From: Bdellovibrionales bacterium
GTDB taxonomy: Bacteria > Bdellovibrionota > Bdellovibrionia > Bdellovibrionales > UBA1609
Assembly: GCA_965203095.1 (NCBI GenBank)
Contig: OZ241877.1
Coordinates: 1,533,518 to 1,597,517, forward strand
Reading direction: 5' to 3'
DNA length: 64,000 nt
A program made the position numbers and the translations under genes. Numbering within the stretch: position 1 is the stretch's first letter; the number at the start of each line of letters is the position of its first letter. The notes below the pieces were generated by a model. It saw nothing but the letters and a program-made list of their open reading frames with translations. It searched no databases and was not told where the DNA came from. This document shows, in pieces, positions 1 to 47,933 of this stretch.

Positions 1-387
1 ATTTATTTAGAGCATTCTAAGGGGCGACTGCCCACTTGGCTCTCTCCGATTCAGGTAAAAATTTTGCCTTTGACAGAAAAGGAAAAAGTTTTTTCTCTCC
101 ATATCCAAAAAAAGCTTGAACAAAAAAAAATCATTTGTAAAATAGACAATAGAAATGAACAGTTGTCTTATAAAATTCGAGAGGCTCAAACTCAACAAAT
201 CCCCTATATGTTAGTTGTCGGCCCTAAAGAAGTGCAATCCGAAAGCCTTTCCGTTCGTTTGAGAACTGGCGAGTTGTTTTCAAAATGGAATCTTGAAGAG
301 TTTGCCAATAAACTCTTTGAGGAGATCCAAAATCGGGACTCCAAAGCCTTCCTGCTCAAAAATCAGTCTAAAGGTATCTGCCATTAA
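1..387 (+). CDS. thrS: Threonyl-tRNA synthetase, C-terminal part (5' end lies outside the window)
   Basis: Frame 1 is open from base 1. The translation HSKGRLPTWLSPIQVKILPLTEK...QIPYMLVVGPKEV...LSVRLR resembles the ThrRS catalytic-end and anticodon-binding domain. infC follows, a common arrangement. Confidence 0.8.
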   Translation: MYLEHSKGRLPTWLSPIQVKILPLTEKEKVFSLHIQKKLEQKKIICKIDNRNEQLSYKIREAQTQQIPYMLVVGPKEVQSESLSVRLRTGELFSKWNLEEFANKLFEEIQNRDSKAFLLKNQSKGICH

Positions 388-1084
388 ATCCAAAAGACAT
401 TTTCGTGGCCGTTTTAAACGGGAGGAGAAACACCGCCGGAATGAAAGGGTGAAAGCTCCTGAAGTCCGCCTTATTGATGAAAATGGGCAACTTGTGGGGT
501 TAATGTCCTCTTCTTCTGCATTGCAGAAAGCACGAGAGAAGGGGCTGGATCTGGTGGAAATTCACGATAAATCACAACCTCCGATATGCAAAATTATGGA
601 TTATGGGAAGTGGAGGTTTGAGACTAAAAAAAAGGAGAAACAAAACAGAAAAAAACAAAACAAAATTTTAGTTAAGGAAATACAACTAAGACCCCGCACC
701 GATGAGGGCGATATTCGTATTAAACTGGAAAAAGCCAAAGAGTTTTTAAACCAAGGCCATAAGGTGAAAGTGAATTTAAGATTTTTTGGCCGAGAAATGG
801 CTCATAAGGAATTAGGATTCAACTTGTTAAAAAAAGTGGAGAAGCGACTTTCTGATCTGGCGATTCCGGAAATGCCAGCCAAAATGGAAAGGCGAGCCTT
901 GTTTGTCATTTTAGCCCCGCAAAGCCACTTTAGTAAAAAAAGCTCAAAAGCCTCTGCTCGTTCAGGAGCAAAGCTCAAAACTGTATCAGAATCTTCTAAC
1001 AGCCCACCCACCGCTGAGCAAAAAGCTTCTTCTTCCTCTGTTATTGTGGAAAAGCAATTCATAAAAAACATCAATAACAGGTAG
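383..1084 (+). CDS. infC: Translation initiation factor IF-3; probable ATT start overlapping the thrS stop
   Basis: EVRLIDENGQLVG...LDLVEI...PPICKIMDYGKWRFETKKKEK...KEIQLRPRTDEGDIRIKL...VNLRFFGRE is canonical IF-3. There is no in-frame ATG near the conserved N-terminus, and an in-frame ATT sits at 383. The protein has a Ser/Lys-rich C-terminal extension. Confidence 0.8.
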   Translation: MKSKRHFRGRFKREEKHRRNERVKAPEVRLIDENGQLVGLMSSSSALQKAREKGLDLVEIHDKSQPPICKIMDYGKWRFETKKKEKQNRKKQNKILVKEIQLRPRTDEGDIRIKLEKAKEFLNQGHKVKVNLRFFGREMAHKELGFNLLKKVEKRLSDLAIPEMPAKMERRALFVILAPQSHFSKKSSKASARSGAKLKTVSESSNSPPTAEQKASSSSVIVEKQFIKNINNR

Positions 1085-1217
1085 TTAGTCCTGAAAAAGC
1101 TTACTAAAAAACCTATTTTTTAAAGTTTTTTTGGGAAAAAATCTCATTATGTGATTGAGTTTAGTCCAGCATGGAATCTTTTTTGCTACACAAAAAAGGC
1201 AAAGGAGGAATTGAACT

Positions 1218-1427
1218 ATGGACAAAAATAATCCTGAAAACATCCGATCGGTCCAAAAGAAAGACCAAAAAAAGGAATTTCTCTCCGGTCAAAATGAGTG
1301 CTATCTTTGTGGCCAGCCTTTAAGCACTCATATTGAGTATTTGCCACAAACTCATTTAGTGGTAGAGAGAGCCCAGTGCCATAGCTGTATGACAGTGGTT
1401 AGGGTAAAAAATCACTCTTTGCATTAG
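1218..1427 (+). CDS. Small zinc-ribbon-like protein (CxxC ... CxxC), function unknown
   Basis: A 69-aa ORF follows the Shine-Dalgarno AAAGGAGGA 7 nt upstream. It contains two Cys pairs (CYLCG, CHSC). Confidence 0.5.
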   Translation: MDKNNPENIRSVQKKDQKKEFLSGQNECYLCGQPLSTHIEYLPQTHLVVERAQCHSCMTVVRVKNHSLH

Positions 1428-1490
1428 AAGGTTTTACTTTTTTTGGCTGGACCCTTGGCAAATTTTCTAAAAAGCTCTTCAGGCTTTTTA

Positions 1491-1514
1491 GTTCCCGCGA
1501 GAGCGGGAATCCAT
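1491..1514 (+). repeat. R1 palindromic unit (GTTCCCGCGAGAGCGGGAATCCAT)
   Basis: Inverted repeat TTCCCGC/GCGGGAA with a 4-nt loop. Its flanks resemble the composite R1/R2 copies at 12.6 and 14.8 kb. Confidence 0.7.
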
Positions 1515-1855
1515 ATCTGTTGAAAACAAGAATCCAGATTTTCTATAAAATTTGCTAAAGGAGGGGGTATTCCTTTCTCAACACGAAAAACAGGCACAAA
1601 AAGCCCGTATTTTAAGGCTAAATGGGTGGAATAATCCTGTTGTCATGAAAAAATCTTAAAAAATAAAAACTAAGTGATAGGATAAGATTAAATAATGAAA
1701 ACTTGACATTTTGTCATTTTTTTGACAAAAAACAACAAAAAAAGGCATTTACACAGTGCAACATAAAGTTTATTTGGCTTTATCCGGTTTTTTACTGCTA
1801 TTCTATTGGAGGAAAAGTATTAGTTCAGTTGTTTCCCACAGGAAAGGAGGTTTTA

Positions 1856-2155
1856 ATGTTAGATAACTTTCAGTTTAATGGCTTTGTGCCCAATCAAAGC
1901 ATAAAGAGGCAGAGCCGTTTTTTTTACAACCTTATTGAAAAGCGTGCTCCCAGTGATTCCAAAAAAACGGCGTCTTTAACTAAGAGGGGAAAGCTCTATG
2001 AGGCTCGCCTGAGGATCTCATCTGCCGGGGCCTGTTCTTTTGAGATTTTTTCCAGGGAAAATAGCATCTCAGGCTCTATGAATAGCCTTCGAAAACAGTT
2101 TTTTGACAAAATCATCAGATGGAACAAACAAAGAGATCAAAAAGTAGCTCTCTAA
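1856..2155 (+). CDS. Hypothetical protein (about 99 aa); the start is taken at the ATG after GGAAAGGAGG rather than at the ORF-track start 1703
   Basis: A strong RBS lies 5 nt upstream of ATG 1856. There is a weak, unverified resemblance to ribosome-associated RaiA/HPF-type proteins. Confidence 0.4.
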   Translation: MLDNFQFNGFVPNQSIKRQSRFFYNLIEKRAPSDSKKTASLTKRGKLYEARLRISSAGACSFEIFSRENSISGSMNSLRKQFFDKIIRWNKQRDQKVAL

Positions 2156-2263
2156 AGCCAGCTCAACCTTTTATCATAGTTTAAAAGCTCTATTACGGCT
2201 ATCTTCCCTCACTTCATCTTGAAAACTCAAACAAAATGAGTGTAAAAACTAAGGGGAGTCATA

Positions 2264-3679
2264 ATGCCCTGTAGGATAGATCTTGAATTTTTATTAAAAG
2301 CCATCCCCCATTCCTCTTGCTTGCAAAAGGCTGAAAGTATTTTTGATGGCCTCTCCACAGATTCTCGACAAGATCTTAAAGGCAAAGTGTTTTTTGCCCT
2401 TAAAGGGCCTCATTTTGATGGGCAGGATTTTTTGCAGGAGGCTATGGATAAAGGGGCTATAGCCTTTGTTGTGAGTGATAAAAACAAAGTCAGTAAATTT
2501 TTAAAAAATAAAAGGCTGACTGTTATCCATGTCCCGGACACTTTAAAGGCACTTCAAAAATTAGCCTATTTATGGAATCAGCGGATGAAAACAAAAGTTG
2601 TGGCCATCACTGGGAGCAATGGCAAAACCACCACTCGGTATTTTGCTCAAACTTTATTCCTCAGTGAAAAGCCTTTTTTTAGCCCAAAAAGCCATAATAA
2701 TTTTGTAGGCGTCCCTCTCTCTCTTTTGCAAGTGAATCGTGAAGGGGCTTTCCTCATTCAAGAGATAGGGACCAACTCTCCTGGGGAGGTGGCTTTTCTC
2801 ACTTCGCTTTGCCGGCCAGTGATTTCTACTGTGACAATGGTTGGGCCTTCTCACTTAGAGGGCTTAGGCTCAGAAGAGGCTGTAGCAAGGGAAAAACAAC
2901 AAGTTTATTCCCACAGTGCTTCTTCAGCCCTTTGGATTTTTAACAGAGACAATTTTTGGACTGAAAACATGTTTCAAAAATCCTCTCGCTCGCAAAAATT
3001 GGTTTTGACTTTTTCTTCTATAAAACAAAATACTGATGTTTGTTTAAATTTTGTTGAAGAAAAAGCCATGTCCTCTTTAATCCAAGGGCGGATAGGCTCA
3101 GTTAAGGGGCAAAGTTTAGTTTTATTTTCCGGAAGTCCTCATTTAGAAAATCTTATGTGTGCCTGCTGTTTGGCCTTAGGGGCTGGAATTGACCCTAAAA
3201 CTATATGGAATCAAATTTCTCAATGCCGTTTACCTCCGGGGAGGCAGGAGTTATTGCATATTAAAGACAAAAATATTTCTATCTTTTTTGACGGTTATAA
3301 TGCCAATCCCTCCAGCATGAATTTTTTTCTTGATTTTATTGGAAGATTTTCAACCCCTCAGCAAAGGTTGTTAGCCCTTGGGGACATGAAAGAATTGGGC
3401 CCGGCCTCTTCCCACTTTCATAAGCAGTTGGCCACTCACTCGGCACTTTTAGAATCTCGCTTTATAATTTTTATGGGTCAGCATGGCCTTTTGTTGGAGG
3501 AGGAGCTAAAAAAACAGGGTTTTAAAGGGAGTTTTATTTGTTCTGACATATACAATTCAAAAATACTTTCTGTTTTAAGGGAAGAATTAAAACCGGGGGA
3601 TTTTTTAGCTGTTAAAGCTTCACGAAGTTTCCGGCTGGAAAGGTTAGTGCGTGATTTGACCGGAAAAAAAATTTTTTAA
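2264..3679 (+). CDS. murF: UDP-N-acetylmuramoyl-tripeptide--D-alanyl-D-alanine ligase
   Basis: Mur ligase P-loop ITGSNGKTTT, the C-terminal motif DGYNANPSSM, and a 471-aa length are typical of MurF. Confidence 0.85.
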   Translation: MPCRIDLEFLLKAIPHSSCLQKAESIFDGLSTDSRQDLKGKVFFALKGPHFDGQDFLQEAMDKGAIAFVVSDKNKVSKFLKNKRLTVIHVPDTLKALQKLAYLWNQRMKTKVVAITGSNGKTTTRYFAQTLFLSEKPFFSPKSHNNFVGVPLSLLQVNREGAFLIQEIGTNSPGEVAFLTSLCRPVISTVTMVGPSHLEGLGSEEAVAREKQQVYSHSASSALWIFNRDNFWTENMFQKSSRSQKLVLTFSSIKQNTDVCLNFVEEKAMSSLIQGRIGSVKGQSLVLFSGSPHLENLMCACCLALGAGIDPKTIWNQISQCRLPPGRQELLHIKDKNISIFFDGYNANPSSMNFFLDFIGRFSTPQQRLLALGDMKELGPASSHFHKQLATHSALLESRFIIFMGQHGLLLEEELKKQGFKGSFICSDIYNSKILSVLREELKPGDFLAVKASRSFRLERLVRDLTGKKIF

Positions 3680-3786
3680 AAAAAGTGGACAAGCTCTTTA
3701 CTAATAAATATAATGGCTTTATTAAAATTTTTAACTTAAAGAGGGTATAAATCATGGGAGTGTTTTATATTTTTTTAAAAAAGGCT

Positions 3787-4194
3787 ATGGGTAAAAGGGG
3801 CTTGAGCCTGATTGAAATGCTTGTAGTGGTAGGCATTTTGGCTTTTGTTATGTCTGTTGTGGCACGCTCTGTCTCTCAAAGGAAGAAAAAAAGCCAAGTC
3901 AGCCAAACTAAAATTTTAATTGGGGTGATTGAGCAGGCTATGGAGGAGTTTAATTATGATTGTGGGTATTACCCGGAGTCTTTGCAAGATCTGGTATCCT
4001 CACCGGGGGATTGTGAAGAGTGGGGGCCTCAGCCCTACTTAAAAAACGGGAAAATTCCAAAAGATCCTTGGGGTAAGGATTTTATTTATGAGTATGATGA
4101 AAGCAGTGGGAGCTTTGCCATTGTGAGTTGGGGGGCTGACAGGAAACCCGGTGGCAGTGGGCAATTCAATAAAGACATTTCCTCTTTAGATTGA
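3787..4194 (+). CDS. gspG: Type II secretion/type IV pilin-like major pseudopilin (GspG family)
   Basis: Prepilin leader and N-terminal helix KRGLSLIEMLVVVGILAF, with the C-terminal GspG-like motifs PKDPWGKDFIY and SWGADRKPGG. The ORF track starts at 3754, but ATG 3787 gives a typical short leader. Confidence 0.75.
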   Translation: MGKRGLSLIEMLVVVGILAFVMSVVARSVSQRKKKSQVSQTKILIGVIEQAMEEFNYDCGYYPESLQDLVSSPGDCEEWGPQPYLKNGKIPKDPWGKDFIYEYDESSGSFAIVSWGADRKPGGSGQFNKDISSLD

Positions 4195-4313
4195 TGCCAG
4201 ATTGTTGATATTTTTTAGAGCTTTTTATTTTTGCCTTTCTCTTAAGTTTTAAGGAAGGTTCTGCCCGGTGCAATAGAGGGCGTTTATGTTAGAGAAACAG
4301 CCTCAATAAAAAT

Positions 4314-4898
4314 ATGATTTTTGCAAAATGGGCTTTTCCCTTTAGCAAAACACAGTCAAAAGCTTTTTCACTTATAGAGCTATTACTGGTTTTATTTATT
4401 TTGGTTTTTGTGTTTGCCTTTGTTTCCAAAAGATTTTTCCGTAAGGAGGAAAAAGTCAGAACCGCTTTTGATAAACTGGCTCGCCTTAATCGCCGGTTGG
4501 TTTTGCAATCTCAGATGAATAATCAAACTTATCGTTGGGTTATTGATCTCAAAAGTGATGGGCCGGAACAATATTGGGTGGAAAAACAACAGATAAAATC
4601 TCCACAGGCAACTGAAGATGAGGAAAAGCCCTCTTCAGGTTTTGTTGTGGATCGTAGGTTTTTCCCTGAGCCGGAGATCATTACTCCTCTTTTAGATATT
4701 TCTCGTGTGGAAAGCACTTTATTAGAGGAGGCTCAAACTGAAGGGCAGGTTTACATTTATTATTATCCTAAGGGTTTAGCTCAAGAGACGGCTCTTCATT
4801 TTTATCGCCCGGACAATCAAGCTGTTTGGACTTTACATTTAAATCCGGCAACCAAAAGCCTTGAGCTATTTAAAGGTGAAAAAAATATTTCTCAATAA
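4314..4898 (+). CDS. Minor pseudopilin-like protein (GspH-like) with a prepilin-type N-terminal helix
   Basis: SKAFSLIELLLVLFILVFVFAFV is a prepilin-type cleavage/methylation segment. The gene lies next to the gspG-like gene. Confidence 0.55.
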   Translation: MIFAKWAFPFSKTQSKAFSLIELLLVLFILVFVFAFVSKRFFRKEEKVRTAFDKLARLNRRLVLQSQMNNQTYRWVIDLKSDGPEQYWVEKQQIKSPQATEDEEKPSSGFVVDRRFFPEPEIITPLLDISRVESTLLEEAQTEGQVYIYYYPKGLAQETALHFYRPDNQAVWTLHLNPATKSLELFKGEKNISQ

Positions 4899-4911
4899 AA
4901 ATAAAAATTGC

Positions 4912-4951
4912 ACGGATTTTGTTTGAAAATGCCTGCTTTCTGGACTCTGCT
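4912..4951 (+). repeat. R3 repeat copy 1 (TTTGAAAATGCCTGCTTTCTGGACTCTGCTTTGACCAGGA)
   Basis: Near-identical to 10605-10645 and, in inverted orientation, to 53177-53217. Confidence 0.75.
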
Positions 4952-5039
4952 TTGACCAGGATTTTCAACTATTATCAATATAAGCCATTTTCTTACTTGA
5001 AAAAACTTGGACAATACCTGAAAATAAAAAATACATTTT

Positions 5040-7328
5040 ATGAATAAAAAAGATCTAACAGAACGAGATATTTGCACAAAATATATTACTCCTGCTATAG
5101 AACAGGCGGGTTGGGATAAAATTTTTCAAATAAGGGAAGAGCTTTACTTTACGGACGGAAGGATCCAAGTCCAGGGGCAAAAAAGCAAGAGGTTGAAGGG
5201 CAGGAAGGCAGACTATATTCTTTATAAAAATGACAAGCAAATTGCAGTTATTGAGGCTAAAGATAACAATCACTCTATATCTTCAGGTATACAACAGGCT
5301 TTAGAGTATGCGGATATTTTAGACATTCCCTTTGCTTTTTCCTCAAACGGCGATGGTTTTTTATTCCATGATAAAACATCCGGTAGAGAAACAGAGTTGC
5401 AACTACAAGACTTCCCCTCCCCCGGAAAACTTTGGTCCATTTATAAAAAACATAAAAACCTCAATGAGGAGCAGGAAAAAATCATTTTAGAGCCTTACCA
5501 CAGTGGGGCTGAGGTAAAAGAGCCAAGATATTACCAAAGAATAGCCATTAACAGGGTGGTTGAGGCTATTTCTAAAGGTCAAAACAGACTTCTTTTAGTT
5601 ATGGCCACGGGAACAGGAAAAACCTACACAGCTTTTCAAATCATGTGGAAACTTTGGAAAGCCAAAAAGAAAAAACGAATTTTATTTTTAGCAGACAGAA
5701 ACATTTTAGTTGACCAAAGCCGAAACAATGACTTTGCCCCTTTTAGACATGTAATGACAAAAATCAAAGGGAGAGTGGCGGATCCCGCTTACGAAGTTTT
5801 TTTATCTTTGTATCAGGCCATTACTGGGGAAGAAGAGAGTAAGAAAATTTTTAAAAAATTCTCTAAGGATTTTTTTGATTTGATTGTGATTGATGAATGC
5901 CACAGAGGAAGTGCTAAAGAGGACTCCTCTTGGCGGGAAATTTTAGAGTATTTTAACTCTGCAACTCAAATCGGTTTGACAGCTACTCCAAGAGAGACCA
6001 AATATACTTCCAACATTCGTTATTTTGGTGATCCTGTTTATACTTATTCTTTAAAGCAGGGTATAGAAGACGGCTTTTTAGCTCCCTACAAGGTAATAAG
6101 AATTGACATAGATAAAGACATTTATGGCTGGAGGCCGAAAAAGGGCCAGATGGACAAATACGGCCAGCTTATTGAAGACAGAGAATTTAAACAAAAAGAT
6201 ATGGACAAAAGCCTTGTTCTTGAAAAAAGAACAGAGCTTGTAGCTGAGAAAGTGACTGAGTTTTTAGAGCAAACAGACCTTTTTCAAAAAACAATTGTTT
6301 TTTGTGATGACATAGATCATGCAGAAAGAATGAGGTTGGAGCTTATCCATCAAAACTCTCAAGAAGTTAAAAAAAACAATAAATACATTATGAAAATAAC
6401 AGGTGATGATAAGATAGGAAAAGACGAGCTTGAAAATTTTATCAACCCCGAAAAAAGATATCCTGTAATCGTCACAAGCTCAAAACTGCTTACAACAGGA
6501 GTAGATGCAAGAACATGCAAGTTGATTGTTTTGGACAAAACCATCAACTCCATGTCTGAGTTTAAGCAAATTATAGGGAGAGGGACTCGTGTGGAAGAGG
6601 ATTTTGGTAAAATGTTTTTTACAATTATGGACTTCAAGGGAGCTACAAGGCTTTTTAATGATCCTGATTTTGACGGTGAGCCGGTGGAATTTTACGAGTC
6701 AAGACCAGGGAAGCCTATCGTTCCTTCAGGGAATGAAGATAAGCCAGCAGAAAACCCGGATGATTTTGAACCAAGAAAAAAATATTATGTTAAAAACCAG
6801 CCTGTTGAAATTATAGGTGAGGAGATAAGATATATCGGAGCTAAGGGCCAACTTATCACTGAGTCTTTTATAGATTACACCAAAAAAATTGTTTGCAAAA
6901 AATATCCCACTTTAAATAAATTCATTACTCATTGGAAGGAGTCAAACAATAAAAAAAAGCTTATAGATGAATTACAGGAAGAGGGTTTATTGACAATCCC
7001 TCTTAAAGAAAAGATCAATCAAAATATAGATGTTTTTGATTTAATAAATTATTTTGTTTTTGGGAAAGAGTTTTTAACAAAAGAGCAGAGGATAGAAAAA
7101 GCTAAAAACTCTTCTGCCTTCTCCCTTTTAGAGATGGATTGCCGGAAAATAATAAGTGAGCTTTTAAAAAAATATTCTCATAATGGAGTGGATAGCTTAG
7201 AGAATTTGGAAATTCTAAAAACTCCCTCTATGGGCAAATTTGGAACTGCTATGGAAATACTTAATAAATTTAACGGAACAGAAAAATACATAGAGACCAT
7301 AAGACAAATACTTAATGAGCTTTATTAA
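5040..7328 (+). CDS. hsdR: Type I restriction enzyme, R (endonuclease/translocase) subunit
   Basis: N-terminal PD-(D/E)xK signature (ADYILY...AVIEAKD). SF2 helicase motifs MATGTGKT and VIDECHRGS are present. hsdM and hsdS follow. Confidence 0.9.
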   Translation: MNKKDLTERDICTKYITPAIEQAGWDKIFQIREELYFTDGRIQVQGQKSKRLKGRKADYILYKNDKQIAVIEAKDNNHSISSGIQQALEYADILDIPFAFSSNGDGFLFHDKTSGRETELQLQDFPSPGKLWSIYKKHKNLNEEQEKIILEPYHSGAEVKEPRYYQRIAINRVVEAISKGQNRLLLVMATGTGKTYTAFQIMWKLWKAKKKKRILFLADRNILVDQSRNNDFAPFRHVMTKIKGRVADPAYEVFLSLYQAITGEEESKKIFKKFSKDFFDLIVIDECHRGSAKEDSSWREILEYFNSATQIGLTATPRETKYTSNIRYFGDPVYTYSLKQGIEDGFLAPYKVIRIDIDKDIYGWRPKKGQMDKYGQLIEDREFKQKDMDKSLVLEKRTELVAEKVTEFLEQTDLFQKTIVFCDDIDHAERMRLELIHQNSQEVKKNNKYIMKITGDDKIGKDELENFINPEKRYPVIVTSSKLLTTGVDARTCKLIVLDKTINSMSEFKQIIGRGTRVEEDFGKMFFTIMDFKGATRLFNDPDFDGEPVEFYESRPGKPIVPSGNEDKPAENPDDFEPRKKYYVKNQPVEIIGEEIRYIGAKGQLITESFIDYTKKIVCKKYPTLNKFITHWKESNNKKKLIDELQEEGLLTIPLKEKINQNIDVFDLINYFVFGKEFLTKEQRIEKAKNSSAFSLLEMDCRKIISELLKKYSHNGVDSLENLEILKTPSMGKFGTAMEILNKFNGTEKYIETIRQILNELY

Positions 7329-7353
7329 ACTAAGTAATAAACAGAGTAAAAAT

Positions 7354-8793
7354 ATGTCACTACAAAACCTTGTAAAATCCATACAAAACATTATGAGAAA
7401 AGATGCAGGAGTTAATGGGGACGCTCAAAGGATTGAGCAGTTGGGTTGGATTTTTTTCTTAAAGATATTTAGTGATAAAGAGATTGAAAGCCAAACTCTA
7501 AAAAAAAACTATCGTCCCTCTATTCCAAAAAAATACTTATGGCAAAGTTGGGCCAGCAATCCTGAAGGCCGGACAGGAGATGAGTTATTGAGTTTTATCA
7601 ATAATGATTTGTTTCCGCGGTTAAAAAACATGTCTTTGAATATTCAGACAAATCCAAAAGGGCTTATCATTAAGGAGGTTTTTCAGGATTCAAATAATTA
7701 TATGAAAAACGGCACACTTTTAAGGCAAGTCATTAACAAAGTGAATGGAATTGATTTTAATAAAAAAGAGGATTTGCATATTTTTGGGGATATTTACGAA
7801 AATTTTTTAAAGGACTTACAAGGTGCTGGGAATGCGGGAGAATTTTACACACCAAGACCAGTCACTCAATTTATGACAGAAATGATTAGCCCTCAGTTAG
7901 GGGAAAAAGTTTTAGATCCTGCTTGCGGGACAGGAGGTTTTTTATCCTGTGCCACCCAATATATCAGAAAACATTATGTGGAGACAGTGAGAGACAGAAA
8001 AACACTTCAAAAACAAATTCATGGAGTTGAGAAAAAGCCTCTTCCTCATCTTCTTTGTATGACCAATATGCTTTTGCATGAGATTGAAATTCCAACACAG
8101 ATTATCAGGGGGAATAAACTGGCAAAAAGGGTTACAGAATATAAAGTTAAGGACAGGGTGGATGTTATTTTAACAAATCCTCCTTTTGGCGGAAGTGAAG
8201 AGGAGGGGATTAAGGCTAATTTTCCAAAACCTTTTCAAACCAGCGAGACAGCGGATTTGTTTCTTGTATTGATTATAAATTTGCTAAAAGAAGGAGGCCG
8301 AGCGGGTGTTGTTTTGCCTAATGGTTGTTTATCTCAAGCAGGAGTCACGGCAAGAATTAGGCAAGAGCTTTTAGAGACTTGCAATCTTCATACAATAGTG
8401 AGACTGCCTCAGGGGGTTTTTAGCCCTTACTCTTCTATCCATACCAATCTTTTGTTTTTTAATAAAGGTCCTATCACAAAAAAAATATGGTATTATGAAT
8501 TGCCTTTGCCTCAAGGTTTAAAATCATACAACAAAGGGAATCCCATTCAGCATAAAGAGTTTGAGCCAGTTAAAGAGTGGTTTAAATACAGAAAAGCCAA
8601 CAAACATGCTTGGCAGGTTTCCATAGAGGAAATAAAGAAAAACGGTTATATTCTGGATATTAAAAACCCTATTATGGATAAAGAGGAATATGCCGACCCC
8701 GCAGTTCTTGAAAAAGAATATTTGCTTTTAAAAAAGAAAAACAAAAAACTGCTGAATGAAATAAAACAAAAAATAGAAAAAGCCTTACTTTGA
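7354..8793 (+). CDS. hsdM: Type I R-M N6-adenine DNA methyltransferase subunit
   Basis: AdoMet motif DPACGTGGFL and catalytic motif NPPFGG. The start is taken at ATG 7354 (MSLQNLVKSIQ...) rather than 7315, which overlaps hsdR. Confidence 0.9.
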   Translation: MSLQNLVKSIQNIMRKDAGVNGDAQRIEQLGWIFFLKIFSDKEIESQTLKKNYRPSIPKKYLWQSWASNPEGRTGDELLSFINNDLFPRLKNMSLNIQTNPKGLIIKEVFQDSNNYMKNGTLLRQVINKVNGIDFNKKEDLHIFGDIYENFLKDLQGAGNAGEFYTPRPVTQFMTEMISPQLGEKVLDPACGTGGFLSCATQYIRKHYVETVRDRKTLQKQIHGVEKKPLPHLLCMTNMLLHEIEIPTQIIRGNKLAKRVTEYKVKDRVDVILTNPPFGGSEEEGIKANFPKPFQTSETADLFLVLIINLLKEGGRAGVVLPNGCLSQAGVTARIRQELLETCNLHTIVRLPQGVFSPYSSIHTNLLFFNKGPITKKIWYYELPLPQGLKSYNKGNPIQHKEFEPVKEWFKYRKANKHAWQVSIEEIKKNGYILDIKNPIMDKEEYADPAVLEKEYLLLKKKNKKLLNEIKQKIEKALL

Positions 8794-8870
8794 ACTAAAA
8801 AACGGCTAAAAAACTTTATTTTTTCCATTTTTAAGACAAAAAATCCTGTTTTTTTCTATTTTTACAAAAA

Positions 8871-8900
8871 AACCCAATGGACTTTGTTGGGTTTTTATAT
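8871..8900 (+). terminator. Candidate intrinsic terminator between hsdM and hsdS
   Basis: AACCCAA-(9 nt)-TTGGGTT hairpin followed by a T-rich tract (TTTTATATT). Confidence 0.4.
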
Positions 8901-9022
8901 TAAAATCATCTTATGGATAAAATCAGCATTAAAAAACTGCAACAATATGCAAAAAAACAGCATATTAACATTACTCCTTATATTTTGGCACTTACAACAT
9001 GAATAAACAGGCTTGAAAAATA

Positions 9023-23714: not shown

Positions 23715-26489
23715 GTGAGACAAAATGAGTATAAGACTGGCGGTTTGCGGGAAACAGCGGAGGCCCTTTTGACGAAAAATAAAAAATCCACCTTAAGCCT
23801 TACATTTAATAGAGTGGGCTTGGTTCTTTTTTCGGCCCTTATGTGGCCTTCTTTGTCATATTCTTCAAAAGTTTATCGTATTTCCATCCAAGGGAATAAA
23901 ATTATAGAAAAAGGCTTGATTCAATCTCATATCCGCTTAAAGGAGGCTCACTCTTACAATTCTGCTGTGATTCAAAAAGATGTCCGCCGGCTTTTTGCTT
24001 TGGGTTTTTTTGATGATATTGAAGTTCATCGTTTTTACAGTAAAAAAGGCTGGAAAGTGCTTTATCGTGTGAAAGAGTCTGTTCCTGTCTCCGTTGTGGA
24101 GTTTGAGGGGAATGACAGCCTAAAAACAGAAGACTTAAAAGAGCTTTTGCTTATTGAGGAAAACAGTTTTTTAAATTTTGACCGTTTAAAAAAAACAATC
24201 TCAGCCATAAAGGAGAAGTATAGGGAAAAAGGTTATTACTTGGCAGAGGTATCTTACAAAACAAAAAAACAACCTGAAGATAAAAATCCCCGATTAATCA
24301 TTAGCATAAAGGAAAACACAAAACTTCTTATCAGGGAAATTCATTTTATTGGGAATCGGAACATTTCTTCTGAAAAACTAAAATCTATTTTGTTAACTAA
24401 GGAAAAAGATATTTTAAGTTTTTTAAGCTCTTCTGGGATCTTTCAACCCCGGCATATAGAAAGGGATTTGCGGTTTATTGAATATTATTATCGTGATAAG
24501 GGCTATTTGAATGCTCGTGCTCATCCCCCGGAGATCACTATCACTCCAGATCAAAAATTTTTACAAATTTATTTTCCTGTTTCTGAAGGGGCCCGGTTTA
24601 AAGTGGGTCAAGTTGTTTTTCGTGGAGATGAAGTGGTTTTAGCTGATCAGGTAAAGGATCTTTTTGAAAGCCAAGAAGATGAATATTTTTCCCTTAGCCA
24701 CTTGCAAAAAGACATTCAGACAGTTTCCCTTTTATATAAAAATAAGGGTTATGCTTTAGCTGAAGTGCATCCCCAGTTTTTTCCCGATCCTACAGAGGAG
24801 AATAAAGTCCACATTTTGTTTAAAGTAAAAAAAGGTTCTATTTACAAATTAGGAAGAGTTCACTTGTTGGGGAATAAAAACGCGAGGGATAAAGTGATTT
24901 TGCGTCGTCTTCGCCTTCAAGAGGGCCAAATTTACAATGAGAGCCGGAAAGAGCTGAGTCGCCAGCTGATTCAACAGTTAGGCTATTTTGAGAATGTGGA
25001 GATCCAGCCCCGTCCTTCGCAAGAGAACGAAGATGAATTGGATCTCATCGTTCGTGTTAAAGAGAGGGAAAATACTGGAGAGGCCCATTTTGCTGGAGGT
25101 TATAGGGGGGAGACTCGTTTGTTTATCCAAGGAGGACTTAAAAAACAAAACTTTTTAGGTTTGGATCAGAGTATAGCTGGCAATGTTATTTTTAATAAAT
25201 ATCAGGAGTTTTTTAATTTTAACTATCAAAGCCCTTATTTTTTGGATACCAACTGGAATTTTGCCTTTGATATTTTTAACATGAGCCACAGTGTATGGAA
25301 TCAATCTCGCTCCGGCACCTTCCCTTTTTTCGGCTCTTCACAGGATTATTTTTCTTATTTTCAGCTGAACACCGGCTTTTCTATATCCTTAGGTCGTCAT
25401 CTAACGGATTTTTCCACCTTGTTTTTAAAATACAGCTTGCAAAATCAAATCCTTAGAGACCGGCCCATTTATTTTTTAAGAAATCTTCCGGTGCTGTCCT
25501 CTGTATTTAGTTTTTTGTTTGGTGACAAGGATACGGGGCAAACAAGCACTGTCTTTAGTGATATTTACAATTTGGATTCAGCCAGTGGTTTAAACAGCTC
25601 TTTGTCCCTTATATGGGAGTATGACGGGAGAGATGATCGCTACTATGCCTCTAAGGGGATCTTCTCCCGCCTGTCAGCTAACTGGTCGGGTTTGGGTGGG
25701 GATTTTAATTACACTAAACTACAGTTAAATTTTCGTCATTATTACTCTCCTTTTTGGAAGTTAGTTATAAAAAACCGTTGGCTTTTAGGATGGGTGTTCT
25801 CTAACGACAATCGCCCCCCTCCTTTTACAGAGCTTTTTTTAATGGGAGGCTCTTATGATTTAAGAGGTTTTCCCATAAACTCTCAAGGCCCGCGAAAACG
25901 ATCTCAAAAGGCTTTTGAATATGCCGAATCACAAGAACAATTTATAGAGGCCAGCCAAAAACTTTTGCAAAATATTGAAAACCAAAAAGAAGAGTCTCAA
26001 AAGGCTCAAGTTATCCGAGTTTTTTTGCAAAATAATAAAGACCGGTCCCAGGCCGTCCAAAAAATTCAAGAAGAGATATCTTCTAAAGATCAAAAAATCG
26101 ATTCGCAAACCATAAAAGATCTTCAAGAACATTTACAGGAGGTTGTAGACTCTGCCAACTTGCCAGAGGCTCAGTTATTAAATAATAAAGAGCTTTTTGC
26201 CCAAAGGCCCTACGGAGGCCAGCAGATGTTGTTATATAGTTTAGAGCTTGAGTTTCCCATTTTAGAAAGAGCTGAGCTGAGAGGGGCTTTTTTTGTGGAT
26301 ATAGGGGAGGCTAATGATCGCTTAAGCTTTAATTTGGATGAGCAGTTGAGGATGAATGCTGGGGCTGGCATCCGTTGGAAATCTCCTTTTGGGCCTTTGA
26401 GTTTGGATTGGGCTTTCCCTTACCGCCCTCGGAAGGAATGGGGTGAAAGTGACTGGGAGTTTCAGTTCAATATGGGGGCAGAGCTTTAA
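23715..26489 (+). CDS. bamA: Outer-membrane protein assembly factor BamA (Omp85), with a long hydrophilic insertion
   Basis: Repeated POTRA-like modules (F.GN......L), a C-terminal barrel with the L6 motif DLRGF, and the ending WEFQFNMGAEL. A skp-like gene lies downstream. Confidence 0.85.
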   Translation: MRQNEYKTGGLRETAEALLTKNKKSTLSLTFNRVGLVLFSALMWPSLSYSSKVYRISIQGNKIIEKGLIQSHIRLKEAHSYNSAVIQKDVRRLFALGFFDDIEVHRFYSKKGWKVLYRVKESVPVSVVEFEGNDSLKTEDLKELLLIEENSFLNFDRLKKTISAIKEKYREKGYYLAEVSYKTKKQPEDKNPRLIISIKENTKLLIREIHFIGNRNISSEKLKSILLTKEKDILSFLSSSGIFQPRHIERDLRFIEYYYRDKGYLNARAHPPEITITPDQKFLQIYFPVSEGARFKVGQVVFRGDEVVLADQVKDLFESQEDEYFSLSHLQKDIQTVSLLYKNKGYALAEVHPQFFPDPTEENKVHILFKVKKGSIYKLGRVHLLGNKNARDKVILRRLRLQEGQIYNESRKELSRQLIQQLGYFENVEIQPRPSQENEDELDLIVRVKERENTGEAHFAGGYRGETRLFIQGGLKKQNFLGLDQSIAGNVIFNKYQEFFNFNYQSPYFLDTNWNFAFDIFNMSHSVWNQSRSGTFPFFGSSQDYFSYFQLNTGFSISLGRHLTDFSTLFLKYSLQNQILRDRPIYFLRNLPVLSSVFSFLFGDKDTGQTSTVFSDIYNLDSASGLNSSLSLIWEYDGRDDRYYASKGIFSRLSANWSGLGGDFNYTKLQLNFRHYYSPFWKLVIKNRWLLGWVFSNDNRPPPFTELFLMGGSYDLRGFPINSQGPRKRSQKAFEYAESQEQFIEASQKLLQNIENQKEESQKAQVIRVFLQNNKDRSQAVQKIQEEISSKDQKIDSQTIKDLQEHLQEVVDSANLPEAQLLNNKELFAQRPYGGQQMLLYSLELEFPILERAELRGAFFVDIGEANDRLSFNLDEQLRMNAGAGIRWKSPFGPLSLDWAFPYRPRKEWGESDWEFQFNMGAEL

Positions 26490-26545
26490 TTTCAGACTCC
26501 ATAAAGTAGACTTTCTGGTTCCCACAAACCAAGTTATTCCTGTAA

Positions 26546-27625
26546 ATGTTCAGTATTTCGCTGACAGAATCATTTTTCAATTTCCCGCCGAACCTTGCCA
26601 GAAATCCCTCCAGCTTTCTGGCTCCCGTGAAAACGGAAATCCACCGTCGTTCCCGCGAAAGCGGGAATCCACCGTCGTTCCCGCGAAAGCGGGAATCCAC
26701 CGTCGTTCCCGCGAAAACGGGAATCCACCGTCGTTCCTGCAAAAGCGGGAATCCACCGTCGTTCCTGCAAAAGCGGGAATCCATAAATTACTTCTGGACT
26801 GGGGGGTATTTATCCTATTCTGGTTGGGGTTTTCTTGGAGGGATTACCTTTGTCCGGGAGGATCAGGTGGATCGAGGGGTTTTAAGCCATGAGTTGGCTC
26901 ATCTTTTAGGCCAGCGGAAGGATTTTTATGATCAAGAGGGAAAGCAACAGCAAAAGTGCCGTAGGTTTTCCGGGGATGAGTTGATCCCTTGTGCAGGTTA
27001 TAAAATTCCAAGGGCTTTAGATTCCTGGGTTGAAAATGGGCAAAGGCATTGGAATTTTGTCCAAGATAGATACAGTATTATGGACAACAAAAATGAACCT
27101 GATATTGAAGAGAATATTTTAGAAGAATTATGGATAGATCGGGAGAGCCATCAGAGGGTATTTTCACCTTACGCCAAAGTCAGTTCTGTTTTTGATCATC
27201 TTCAAAACAAAATCCATTTATCTGAAAAGAAGATTAAACCAAAGAAATTATTAGTTTCTGGTTTTTACGATAAGAAGAGGAATCGGTTTTTATCTCCTCA
27301 GTTAAGGGTTTTAGAGACGGACGGGGTCACTCCTTCTTTATCTAAGGACTGGGATGTAAAGGAAGTGCCTTTAGTTTCATTTCATGTAAAAAACAGGGAG
27401 GGATCTCCTTTGCAGACGATTCGTCGTCCTGCTTTTGATGTGGAGTCTCGATTTCTTTATGAGGGGGGAAAGAGTAGAGAATGTGGTTCCAAGTCTTTTG
27501 GTTTATCGATGGTTTCAGCTATTTTTAATTTATCGGAGTTGAGGACAAGTCCAAAGGATATTAAACTTTCTGTTTTTGGCCCGGAGGGGGAGGAAATTTT
27601 TTCCTCCTTATTACCTGAGGATTGA
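26546..27625 (+). CDS. HExxH zinc-metalloprotease-like protein. The N-terminal 80 or so codons are encoded by the repeat array, so the start is uncertain and the gene may be disrupted.
   Basis: SHELAHLLG (HExxH) lies about 30 codons after the array. ATG 26546 reads in-frame through all six units. Confidence 0.45.
   Translation: MFSISLTESFFNFPPNLARNPSSFLAPVKTEIHRRSRESGNPPSFPRKRESTVVPAKTGIHRRSCKSGNPPSFLQKRESINYFWTGGYLSYSGWGFLGGITFVREDQVDRGVLSHELAHLLGQRKDFYDQEGKQQQKCRRFSGDELIPCAGYKIPRALDSWVENGQRHWNFVQDRYSIMDNKNEPDIEENILEELWIDRESHQRVFSPYAKVSSVFDHLQNKIHLSEKKIKPKKLLVSGFYDKKRNRFLSPQLRVLETDGVTPSLSKDWDVKEVPLVSFHVKNREGSPLQTIRRPAFDVESRFLYEGGKSRECGSKSFGLSMVSAIFNLSELRTSPKDIKLSVFGPEGEEIFSSLLPED
26621..26784 (+). 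repeat. Spacer-less tandem array of 6 x 28-bp R1-derived units
   Basis: The unit is GTTCCCGCGAAAGCGGGAATCCACCGTC. Unit starts are 26621, 26649, 26677, 26705, 26733 and 26761, and the last unit is truncated. Confidence 0.9.
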
Positions 27626-27658
27626 CAAAATTCCATAAAAATTATAGGTTTTAACATT

Positions 27659-28258
27659 ATGAAGTTATTTTTTGTTTTCTATTTATTGTTTTTGTCTTCA
27701 AATGCTACGGCTTGGACGGGGTATTGGGAGAGAGCCACTCGTGGTCCTCTTCGTCAGATTGTGTTTTATGGTTATTACTATGCTGAAGATGAAAAGGAGT
27801 TCGAGAAGTCGGAGGAGTATTACCGTAGAAGAGGCTACTTAGAAGAAGGAGAATCTTTTAAGGAAAGCTCACTTTATGGAGGAGAAGGAAAAGAGCGCTA
27901 TGGGGGGGGGGGTAGATATTATTGTCACAAAGAGACAGATCCTGAGGATGAGGGCTATACGGTGATTTTTAATCCTAATTTAAGGGCAAGACTTTATGAT
28001 GAGGAATGGAACCTTTTAACAGAGGATTATTTGAGGAGTTTTCAGCCGGAAACGGATATTCCATTTAAGTGGAGAGTTAGATCTTATGTTCCCTACCATC
28101 CGGAGGCTTATTATTTAAGGGTTGTAAGGCTTGTTGAAGACAAGGAGGTTGCTGTTCTTTTAGAGAAAAGAGTTGGCAATTTAGAGCGATTGAAAAGTAG
28201 AGGTAGTAGCTACTGGTATGATAAATATTTAGGTTGTTATCGTATCTACCACATCTAA
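27659..28258 (+). CDS. Secreted Tyr/Glu/Gly-rich protein containing a G11 tract
   Basis: Signal-peptide-like N-terminus MKLFFVFYLLFLSSNATA. I recognise no family. Confidence 0.6.
   Translation: MKLFFVFYLLFLSSNATAWTGYWERATRGPLRQIVFYGYYYAEDEKEFEKSEEYYRRRGYLEEGESFKESSLYGGEGKERYGGGGRYYCHKETDPEDEGYTVIFNPNLRARLYDEEWNLLTEDYLRSFQPETDIPFKWRVRSYVPYHPEAYYLRVVRLVEDKEVAVLLEKRVGNLERLKSRGSSYWYDKYLGCYRIYHI
27902..27912 (+). repeat. Homopolymeric G11 tract within a coding sequence
   Basis: TAT GGG GGG GGG GGT encodes YGGGG. It is the longest G/C run I saw in the window. Confidence 0.9.
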
Positions 28259-28506
28259 CTCTCCTTTTTACTCCTAAAAAATTGTAGGTTTTAACATTAT
28301 GAAGTTAGCCATAATCCTTCCTAAACGACTCCAACACCTCTGACTTTTTAACAAACTTTGTCCGAAAGAGAGGTTTTTTCAAATATAAAAGCAGAGAAAT
28401 GGATTTTTTTCTTGTTTTCTGCTTTTTTTTGGGATAAAAACTATTTTGTTTGAAAACTTTAAGAATATTCAAACAGGAATATTATAAATAAAAAGGAGGC
28501 TCTATT

Positions 28507-29004
28507 ATGAAATGGTTTTTTATAGGAACTGTTATATTTTTCTCTTTTCAATCTTTAGCTAAAACAGGCTATGTCAATTTAATGTCGGCTTTTGAAAATA
28601 CCCATCAAGGGCGTAGGGTGAAAAACCGGATAGAAAAATCAGCAGAAAAAGCGAAAGAGGAGTTTAAAGCGATAGAGCGTAAAATTCAAAAGGAAGAGGC
28701 AAAGTTAAAAAAAGAGGCCCCACTTTTGTCGGAATCGGCCCGATCGCAAAAAATTCAGCAACTTCAGCAAAAAATTTTAGACTTTCAAAAATCAGCTAAA
28801 GATAAAGATTTAGAATTGCAAAATCTCCAAAATCAGTTGATGAATCCAGTGATTGACAGGCTAAAAACAGTGATTGGGGAAGTGGCTCGAAAGGAATCTT
28901 ACCTTGTGATTGAAAATATAGGTAACGATATTTTATGGGTGTCGCCACAGCTGGACCTGACAAAAAAAGTTTGGACTGCTTTCAATAAAAAATATAAAAA
29001 GTAG
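28507..29004 (+). CDS. skp: Periplasmic chaperone Skp (OmpH family)
   Basis: A signal peptide, a 165-aa coiled-coil-rich sequence, and a position downstream of bamA. Confidence 0.7.
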   Translation: MKWFFIGTVIFFSFQSLAKTGYVNLMSAFENTHQGRRVKNRIEKSAEKAKEEFKAIERKIQKEEAKLKKEAPLLSESARSQKIQQLQQKILDFQKSAKDKDLELQNLQNQLMNPVIDRLKTVIGEVARKESYLVIENIGNDILWVSPQLDLTKKVWTAFNKKYKK

Positions 29005-47090: not shown

Positions 47091-47207
47091 TTCAAAAGGG
47101 GACTTTTTTATCTTCGTCCCCACAAAAACTTTGGTTTAAAATTAAGCCTTGACAGTTTGGTTCTATGTGGGTAGCTTGTGTCTGTTTTTTTTAAAAGGAG
47201 AGTTTTT

Positions 47208-47933
47208 GTGTTTGCTATTGTTCGTGTAGGCAGTCAGCAGTTTAAAGTCCAAGCTGGAGACTATATCCGCACTCCTTTTCAAAATCATTTGGAAAAAGAG
47301 GAGATAGATCTACCTGTTGTGGCTTTCCGTTCTGAAAAGGCTTTTTTATTTGATTCTGCCGGTTTAAAAGGTGCTCAGGCAAGGGCTATGGTGGTTCGTC
47401 AGTTTTTGGGCAAAAAGGTCCTTGTTTTTAAGAAAAAAAGACGCAAGGGCTATCGCCGGACAAGAGGGCACAGGCAAAAAATCACTGAGTTAAAAATTAT
47501 AAAATTGTGCTCTCCAGAGGGGCAGATCTCTCAAGTTGAGAGCACTTCTAAAACCTCTGTTAAGAAGGCGAAAGCTGAGGGAGCTTCTAAAAAAGCATCT
47601 GTTAAGAAGGTGCAGGCTGAGGGAGCTTCTAAGAAAGCATCTGTTAAGAAGGTGCAGGCTGAGGGAGCTTCTAAAAAAGCATCTGTTAAGAAGGTGCAGG
47701 CTGAGGGAGCTTCTAAGAAAGCATCTGTTAAGAAGGTGCAGGCTGAGGGAGCTTCTAAGAAAGCATCTGTTAAGAAGGTGCAGGCTGAGGGAGCTTCTAA
47801 AAAAGCTCCTGTTAAGAAGGTGCAGGCTGAGGGAGCTTCTAAAAAAGCTCCTGTTAAGAAGGCGAAAGCTCAAAAAAAGTCAGCAGGTAAAACGGCAAAA
47901 ACTTCGTCTAACAAAACCAATAAAAAGCTTTAA
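47208..47933 (+). CDS. rplU: Ribosomal protein L21 with a Lys/Ala-rich repeat tail of about 140 aa
   Basis: A GTG start follows AAAGGAG. VFAIVRVGSQQFKVQAGDYI is the canonical L21 N-terminus. rpmA follows. Confidence 0.85.
   Translation: MFAIVRVGSQQFKVQAGDYIRTPFQNHLEKEEIDLPVVAFRSEKAFLFDSAGLKGAQARAMVVRQFLGKKVLVFKKKRRKGYRRTRGHRQKITELKIIKLCSPEGQISQVESTSKTSVKKAKAEGASKKASVKKVQAEGASKKASVKKVQAEGASKKASVKKVQAEGASKKASVKKVQAEGASKKASVKKVQAEGASKKAPVKKVQAEGASKKAPVKKAKAQKKSAGKTAKTSSNKTNKKL
47556..47875 (+). repeat. 42-bp x about 8 in-frame tandem repeat (SVKKVQAEGASKKA)
   Basis: Unit starts are 47556, 47598, 47640, 47682, 47724, 47766, 47808 and 47850. The central units differ only at AAA/AAG. Confidence 0.9.

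Follow-up and report, generated by a model that had tools for sequence, protein, structure and literature searches.

Among the repetitive extragenic palindromes (REPs), the CGTC-1 family is characterised by an unpaired CGTC tag (variants TGTC, CCTC), an 8-bp stem in which the first two positions are A-T pairs, a 4-nt loop and a CCA tail, and has been equated with the dRS3 element of Neisseria and with RPE-6 of Rickettsia conorii, according to the survey of Di Nocera, De Gregorio and Rocco 2013 (PMC3733652). The dRS3 element is a 20-bp inverted repeat, ATTCCCNNNNNNNNGGGAAT, or ATTCCCN8GGGAAT (PMC1797815). Tandemly reiterated REPs have been described at the SMAG loci of S. maltophilia, where they behave as loci with a variable number of tandem repeats (VNTRs) (PMC2613905), and tandem REP arrays have also been reported in P. 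fluorescens SBW25 (PMC3116915). Here we analyse a 64-kb stretch of a Bdellovibrionales-type genome (contig OZ241877.1; this whole stretch is referred to below as the window), in which six hairpin units lie head to tail between the gene bamA and a gene coding for an HExxH motif. Very probably, this array is a non-coding, VNTR-like amplification of one CGTC-1 class (dRS3-like) REP, belonging to a family scattered in this genome. We consider it a tandemly amplified REP because its units are complete CGTC-1 elements, because single copies are dispersed in the window, because related metagenome-assembled genomes (MAGs) also carry copies, and because similar arrays exist in metagenomes.

The REP array and its dispersed relatives

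The array is a real and statistically solid feature. Tandem Repeats Finder (TRF) reports it as a single array (26623..26783; period 28, 5.8 copies, 94% matches, no indels, score 266), the highest score of any short-period array of the window except for a coding 42-bp repeat, and with up to 3 mismatches allowed, nine copies of the 21-nt core TTCCCGCGAAAGCGGGAATCC are found in the window versus 0 in 100 shuffles. With the degenerate first unit counted, six hairpins span 26617-26784. The unit is made of CGTC, GTTCCCGC, GAAA, GCGGGAAT, CCA and one base, that is, a 27-nt palindromic element with a 1-nt joint, and successive hairpins are set 8 nt apart (CCA C CGTC). The degenerate first unit, U1 (26617-26644, + strand), reads TCTG GCTCCCGT GAAA ACGGAAAT CCA C, with a covariance-model score of 35.3 bits and a fold of -6.7 kcal/mol. 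The five others, U2-U6 (26645..26784, + strand, 28 nt each), are delimited by TRF, the covariance model (42-48 bits each), folding and alignment, and all have the CGTC tag, the GTTCCCGC/GCGGGAAT stem, a GAAA or AAAA loop, the CCA tail and one further nucleotide. U2 (26645-26672) and U3 (26673-26700) are identical in sequence, U4 (26701-26728) has a single change at the top of the stem, where the loop-closing pair is gone, and U5 (26729-26756) and U6 (26757-26784) each have TTCCTGCAAAAGCGGGAA.

As RNA, each unit folds into a stem of eight pairs (seven Watson-Crick and a closing G-U) with a 4-nt loop. The fold energies of U2-U6 range from -13.9 to -9.5 kcal/mol, and the whole tract has a folding z-score of -5.6 relative to shuffles. 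A separate hairpin, GCCAGAAA...TTTCTGGC (26597..26622, + strand), is predicted in both the minimum-free-energy and the centroid structures just 5' of the array; it overlaps the first bases of U1 and is not followed by a T-run. These results uphold three points of the preliminary description of this locus, namely the six-unit 28-bp hairpin array (whose units had been numbered from 26649), the six stable hairpins 3' of bamA, and their unit-by-unit local duplication, the neighbouring units being pairwise identical and the edge unit the most diverged. The array had also been placed directly after bamA; it does lie 3' of that gene, but it begins 128 nt past the stop codon (26489).

The comparison with the CGTC-1 definition is close. 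The CGTC tag is found in all of U2-U6, AGTC or TGTC takes its place in dispersed and related copies, and the tag is gone in U1 and in the copies at 1487 and 12669. The copy at 9551 has the stem and loop of the family (ATTCCCGC GAAA GCGGGAAT), while the stems of the array units (GTTCCCGC...GCGGGAAT) open with a G-T (G-U) pair. The CCA tail is present in all six units and in the copies at 9551, 1487, 12669, 14446, 14823 and 15975. The dRS3 inverted repeat itself is exact in the copies at 9551, 14446 and 15975, with the array units deviating at the first base (G). When the array was compared by blastn with a plasmid collection that includes some chromosomes, matches were obtained in Neisseria gonorrhoeae and Azospirillum records; an Rfam scan of 25500-28500, at E values up to 1, gave no relevant match.

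A REP covariance model, built from the array units and the copies found earlier, with the copies at 14446 and 15975 outside model building, recognises 12 hairpins in the window: the six of the array and six single copies (6 in 64 kb), of which 5 are intergenic and 1 lies within hsdS. The latter (9551..9578, + strand, 45.8 bits) reads AGTC ATTCCCGC GAAA GCGGGAAT CCA and is in frame with the gene. Two of the intergenic copies lie at 1487..1514 (+ strand, 39.9 bits) and 12669..12696 (- strand, 38.9 bits), and a third, at 14823..14850 (- strand, 40.4 bits), has an altered stem (ATTTTCGC/GCGGAAAT) that still pairs. Pairing is likewise retained in the CGTG...CACG stem-top variant of U1, which recurs in REP copies of two related loci, L004 (at 6755) and L005. 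The last two copies, at 14446..14474 (+ strand, 27.6 bits) and 15975..16003 (+ strand, 25.9 bits), have 5-nt loops (ATTCCCGC CTTGA GCGGGAAT), as in CGTC-2, and each is located between a stop codon and the ribosome-binding site of the next gene. Both are intercistronic and in the same orientation as the next gene, a position from which a hairpin might influence how the mRNA is processed or how translation is coupled. The same model gives 13 REP matches at E < 0.05 in four loci of related MAGs, all named 'Bdellovibrionales bacterium'. No REP was found by it in the housekeeping part of the window (17000-64000) apart from the array, nor in the loci of the closest bamA relatives (L090-L093).

The hsdS gene (Pfam Methylase_S; open reading frame (ORF) 9023-10582) is part of an hsdR-hsdM-hsdS operon (5040-10582) of a type I restriction-modification (R-M) system. 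Its REP, AGTCATTCCCGCGAAAGCGGGAATCCA, lies in the first target-recognition domain, where it adds SHSRESGNP and leaves the ORF intact, recalling the Rickettsia palindromic elements (RPEs) found in coding genes. The part of the window with the dispersed copies (1-16500) contains this type I R-M system and also a gene with a Schlafen/AlbA_2-HATPase_c_4-HTH arrangement (12827-14440), and has the look of a region that is variable or devoted to defence. In its 3' part, the Schlafen-like ORF includes a 33-bp tandem repeat (14167-14260; 2.8 copies, 91% identical). As for the 42-bp coding repeat (47556-47862; 7.3 copies, 96% identical), it corresponds to a lysine/alanine-rich C-terminal tail, (SVKKVQAEGASKKA)n, of the ORF 47178-47933, a small basic protein whose gene immediately precedes an ORF with a match to ribosomal protein L27.

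Compact arrays of this type are not restricted to the present genome. A search for runs of at least three such units, placed head to tail and having this stem, GTC in the tag and CC in the tail, retrieved at least 82 metagenome contigs, with arrays of 3-16 units and periods of 25-39 nt, multiples of 3 not being favoured. Each array has its own short linker, and the GC content of the contigs extends from 0.37 to 0.71, so that many lineages must carry such arrays. Where both flanks were long enough, 9 arrays were in a convergent, 11 in a co-directional and 1 in a divergent setting, mostly 3' of gene ends and in either orientation.

The block between bamA and skp

The gene preceding the array, bamA (23715..26489, + strand, 924 aa), has five Pfam POTRA domains and an Omp85 domain, and its homologs are named BamA in Bdellovibrionales MAGs. 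In relatives it adjoins skp (Pfam OmpH), which is found here at 28507..29004 (+ strand), 2,017 nt away. In 3 of the 4 closest bamA relatives examined (60-66% BamA identity) the two genes are adjacent, with neither array nor metalloprotease gene; L091, L092 and L093 share the order lolD-like ABC gene-bamA-skp-ribF-T2SSE, with bamA-skp gaps of 68-103 nt and no REP. The interval of 2,017 nt consists, in order, of 127 nt with a second repeat (called X below) and the separate hairpin, the REP array, an HExxH-coding fragment, a partner gene, a 31-nt duplicate and AT-rich DNA. By this synteny, a block of about 1.9 kb is inserted between bamA and skp, with the array at its left edge. The DNA upstream of skp shows a weak, AT-rich resemblance to the bamA-skp spacers of the relatives, and the right-hand limit of the insertion is approximate. 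The 31-nt duplicate (28277..28307, + strand) is 97% identical (blastn) to 27637-27667, which covers the region upstream of the partner gene and its first codons; it resembles the truncated beginning of a second partner gene and marks the right end of the cassette. In BamA itself, about 100 aa near the C-terminal barrel (residues ~740-840) are charged and rich in Q, E and K, and many of its homologs align over only about 76% of the query, others over 95%, which suggests a lineage-variable insertion.

The fragment that follows the array (26798..27625, + strand) corresponds to the C-terminal HExxH module of a large protein. Residues 85-359 of the window ORF match residues 544-819 of an 819-aa paralog of the same genome, P0127, at 83% identity (BLASTP, E 4e-164), and residues 1-84 have no match in it by BLASTP; the homology starts at 26798, 14 nt past the end of the array. 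Similarly, 26825-27619 matches residues 903-1166 of a 1171-aa protein of the related MAG locus L004 (tblastn, 40% identity, E 5e-58), a full-length protein whose N-terminus is hydrophobic and resembles a signal peptide. Since no more than 127 nt lie between bamA and the array, nothing is left here of the ~540-900 residues that the N-terminus lacks. Homologs of the post-array ORF are few. In the alignment, SHELAHLLGQRKDFY is conserved in 5 of 6 sequences, and the more truncated P0006 is without the motif. No Pfam or NCBIfam family was found for the fragment, the long paralog, the 1171-aa homolog or the partner gene, and the AlphaFold2 model of the fragment, made from the 6-sequence alignment, is unusable (mean predicted local distance difference test score 49.6, below 50 around the HExxH motif).

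The HExxH gene is thus an orphan copy of a C-terminal module, truncated at its 5' end, and not a gene that the array has split. That the downstream gene is incomplete at the array had been correctly noticed in the preliminary description, but its suggestion that the array had disrupted an intact metalloprotease gene is not supported, as the homology starts after the array and the frame-1 ORF upstream matches neither P0127 nor the L004 protein. The stretch 26490-26620 was also considered as a coding remnant of the metalloprotease and rejected, being dissimilar to both proteins and in part X repeat. Indeed, the frame that had looked coding there, VIPVNVQYFADRII, is encoded by the X repeat.

The X repeat, ATTCCTGTAAATGTTCAGTATTTCGCTGACAGAATCA (26536..26572, + strand), is a 37-nt non-coding dispersed repeat with one copy only in the window and no match in Rfam. 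In the related locus L007 two copies (6549-6604 and 6773-6828; 87-90% identity) flank a REP at 6649, and the core TGTAAATGTTCAnTAnTTCGCTGACAnAAT abuts REP-like hairpins in L005 (15162-15191, - strand) and L006 (20562-20591). In related genomes X thus recurs beside REP hairpins, in stretches without a long ORF, and a looser REP and X mosaic is visible both upstream of the array and in L005-L007. X always adjoins REP-type hairpins, and these mosaics resemble the dRS3/RS arrays of Neisseria.

The partner gene (27659..28258, + strand, 199 aa) starts with a signal-peptide-like segment, and its homologs (ORFs of ~210-230 aa) travel with the HExxH module: they follow the HExxH gene in L001, L002 and L004, with three in tandem in L004. 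Because of this association, we take the block to be a piece cut from such an HExxH/partner locus and inserted after bamA. 5'-truncated copies of module and partner are found at unrelated sites, here, in L002 (5526-7650) and in L007 (~10001-10393), and a full-length locus occupies 7295-13140 of L004. The HExxH module and its partner behave like an orphan cassette, and may resemble the orphan modules of polymorphic toxins and their immunity proteins.

The location of the array raises the question of whether it served as a recombination junction, in the manner of the dRS3 arrays of the neisserial intergenic mosaic elements (NIME), at which the cassette entered and which could promote further exchange with the long paralog. 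With homology to P0127 beginning 14 nt past its end, the array falls precisely on the left breakpoint of the block; X accompanies the REPs here and in relatives, forming a mosaic like that of dRS3 and RS; silent cassettes of Neisseria are bordered by dRS3 arrays, in or near which the end points of recombination map (PMC1797815); and the dispersed REPs of the window cluster in the variable-looking region with the type I R-M and Schlafen-like genes. The two other truncated copies tell a different story. The L002 cassette is flanked by a duplicated 3' end of prmC and the L007 fragment (P0006) is fused to a gpmA-like start, in both cases with no REP near the junction according to the covariance model. 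In addition, the right end of the insertion here is without a REP, no recombinase gene was identified nearby, and a coincidence at one junction is possible if REPs simply settle in new intergenic DNA. Mainly because of the two REP-free junctions, we rate a REP-mediated insertion as rather unlikely.

Origin and coding status of the array

The array would have arisen from one REP, together with a single adjoining base, through repeated duplication, most likely by replication slippage or by unequal recombination between neighbouring units; it is the pairwise identity of neighbouring units and the decay of the edge unit that point to such exchanges. We further compared linkers and flanks in 31 clean-ended metagenome arrays, and in 14 of them the flanks explain the linker. 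Several observations weigh against the reading of the array as a slippage-amplified member of a scattered REP family. In the 17 other arrays the linker is not accounted for by the flanks, and since simple duplication of a REP and its flank does not explain these, slippage is perhaps not the whole story. In the present array the C-CGTC linker is visible at neither flank, with U1 being too degenerate to judge. As all the dispersed copies lie within the window's first 16 kb, abundance throughout the genome is extrapolated. A motif scan for HUH...Y..NP ORFs found no gene for a REP-associated tyrosine transposase (RAYT) in the window; in REP/RAYT systems such a gene belongs to the same genome and usually has REPs on its flanks. 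The layout is not the textbook one either, head-to-tail dimers being 'negligible' in the CGTC families in the words of the survey (PMC3733652), and any RNA role of the array is one that we infer entirely from what is established for REPs.

The unexplained linkers are what a site-specific self-insertion would leave, in which a RAYT-like HUH tyrosine transposase cleaves 3' of CGTC and inserts a hairpin-tail-linker-CGTC unit, giving arrays with CGTC at their start and CCA at their end. Elements of the IS200/IS605 type insert 3' of a target tetranucleotide. Most clean-ended metagenome arrays do begin with (C)CGTC and end with CCA(G), and the 17 internal linkers are missing from both flanks. Moreover, on L009, a metagenome contig unrelated to the window, an ORF of 399 aa (3158-4357, - strand) with HUH (NHLHIV) and Y..NP (YVDLNPI) motifs lies 300 nt from a 12-unit array (2455-2858), and the same protein is found in L070. 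Its similarity to REP-associated tyrosine transposases is weak and sub-threshold (NF047646, 31 bits, E 1.6e-7; Y1_Tnp, E 0.07), 31 bits being far under the curated cut-off of 80 bits, and by the motif scan no such gene exists in the window or in the Bdellovibrionales loci, the weak candidate being confined to L009 and L070. The 14 other arrays are fully explained by duplication of REP and flank, as for the SMAG loci (PMC2613905), and decay of the older units at the edges could also mask an identity of flank and linker. For these reasons self-insertion appears improbable for the present array. It also counts against it that we know of no published RAYT activity that builds tandem arrays. The general proposition that spacer-less head-to-tail CGTC-1 arrays are built by a RAYT-like HUH enzyme, inserting units 3' of the CGTC of a resident REP, and not by slippage, is in our opinion very improbable. 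If true, it would make these arrays a mode of REP propagation distinct from the REPIN (inverted-doublet) model and a record of transposase activity, marking in the present case the junction of a freshly inserted cassette beside an essential gene.

In the reading that we favour, the array is non-coding. The public annotation reads it differently, with a 359-aa protein, P0001 (26546..27625, + strand), called on a contig of 1,780,579 bp and the one member of its protein cluster, in which the first 84 codons are X repeat and REP array, without homology to the family by BLASTP; translation of the array would give the HExxH fragment a new repeat-encoded N-terminus. It is true that the ORF starting at ATG 26546 stays open through the array into the HExxH module, and that gene callers predicted it. 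The preliminary description was accordingly right on the readthrough from this ATG into the ORF carrying SHELAHLLG, and on two open forward frames, though the open reverse frames number three and not two. The single 27-nt REP in frame within hsdS further indicates that REP-encoded peptides may be tolerable, as in the Rickettsia RPEs mentioned in the survey (PMC3733652). However, TAA, TAG and TGA are absent from the consensus unit in all six frames, and the array is open in 5 of the 6, the sixth being shut solely by a TGA in the degenerate U1. Since the unit is stop-free in every frame and a period of 28 nt is not divisible by 3, so that translation cycles through the frames, openness carries no coding information. 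The ATG at 26546 is the codon right after a TAA and has no Shine-Dalgarno sequence, in contrast with the AAGGAGG at the start of skp and the GGAGG located 5 nt upstream of a GTG at 26867. No homolog carries such an N-terminus, and at least two thirds of the parent protein are missing from the fragment, as is a signal peptide.

The in-frame fusion is thus a by-product of gene calling, and the long ORF is accidental, resulting from a stop-free unit and from the fact that the first ATG after a TAA shares the frame of the fragment. A translated array is highly improbable, and the idea of a new N-terminus, which had been put forward at the outset, is not sustained. The GTG at 26867 aligns with the first residue of a 253-aa call, P0002, on the paralog sequence and is a possible independent start of the HExxH fragment, although its GGAGG falls in the codons of a conserved REDQ motif and is not proof of initiation.

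Least credible of all is that the array is an assembly artefact, or a CRISPR array of a degenerate or spacer-less kind: a 28-nt hairpin unit is within the size range of CRISPR repeats and tandem repeats are prone to mis-assembly, but successive hairpins are separated by 8 nt and by no spacer, the hairpin also exists as dispersed single copies, the most significant Pfam families of the window (best 25 of 71) are those of housekeeping, R-M and transport, the ordered differences among units are unlike a collapse or expansion of identical ones, and 82 independent contigs share the architecture. A CRISPR array was accordingly rejected as a candidate, there being no unique spacers and the period of 28 belonging to a 27-nt element.

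Possible roles and comparison with known systems

Roles in mRNA stabilisation, termination and supercoiling have been hypothesised for REPs in the survey (PMC3733652). The function that we infer here is that of a hairpin cluster acting on RNA or DNA. On a read-through transcript of bamA, six GC-rich hairpins would form a barrier to 3' exonucleases as well as a processing or partial pause site. The array is not a classic terminator, as its hairpins are without a U-tract, and a terminator scan found no intrinsic terminator in or after it; a promoter scan found no promoter-like site on the + strand between bamA and skp. As DNA, the hairpins would be open to recombination or to the action of a REP-associated HUH transposase, and the number of copies in the array should vary between strains. 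Such arrays should therefore be handy VNTR markers, and are possible mRNA 3' barriers beside essential genes such as bamA.

The finding is mainly a correction, in that a publicly annotated 359-aa 'protein' is an orphan gene fragment whose N-terminal quarter is a non-coding repeat. The peptides SGNPPSFPRKRES and VVPAKAGIH, or RFRGNDGGF and IPAFAGTT on the other strand, are the signature of the array's REP when read as protein. Our understanding of REPs is unchanged by these results, which nevertheless reveal the dRS3/CGTC-1 hairpin in Bdellovibrionales-type bacteria and compact head-to-tail CGTC-1 arrays that are widespread in metagenomes despite the survey's verdict.

Several known systems can be set against this locus. 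CRISPR arrays also have a repeat with a hairpin, in the present case of 28 nt, but the array has no spacers and its repeat is also dispersed singly. The RPEs of Rickettsia, as cited in the survey (PMC3733652), resemble the REP at 9551-9578, which is 27 nt long, stop-free and in frame within hsdS, and the array too lies within a called ORF; its period of 28, however, rules out the insertion of a conserved peptide, and that part of the ORF is without homologs. The NIME of Neisseria (PMC1797815) have the same type of 20-bp palindrome, found in clustered intergenic arrays beside silent 5'-truncated gene cassettes, and in relatives a second repeat, X, interleaves with the hairpins. In NIME, however, the dRS3 copies are set apart by RS elements of 19-214 bp, whereas the hairpins here are 8 nt apart and in one orientation, and no phage or IS110-type recombinase was seen here.

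The closest relatives are the CGTC-1 REPs, with which the elements share the unpaired 5' CGTC, the 8-bp stem, the 4-nt loop, the CCA tail, a length of ~27 nt and the TGTC/AGTC tag variants. CGTC-1 REPs are scattered in many copies per genome, mostly extragenic, close to the 3' ends of genes and in either orientation; the six single copies of the window, five of them intergenic, lie on both strands and all in its first 16 kb. The elements differ from the published family, as far as the survey's text passages describe it (PMC3733652), in array stems that begin with G (G-T/G-U) instead of A-T, in a layout of six head-to-tail units with a 1-nt gap where head-to-head dimers are the main form, and in the host, a Bdellovibrionales-type bacterium being absent from these passages. 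The arrangement itself has its counterpart in the tandem REPs of SMAG and SBW25, in which a REP monomer is likewise reiterated head to tail with adjoining bases and the copy number is expected to vary. The SMAG units have a GTAG tag and a length of 50-103 bp, made of a REP with at least 26 bp of flank (PMC2613905), whereas the unit is here a near-bare REP of 28 bp. The array is ordinary in identity and represents a known kind of repeat. As the reference survey rated head-to-tail dimers 'negligible', the compact head-to-tail form of CGTC-1 is under-described, yet it is no new kind of thing.

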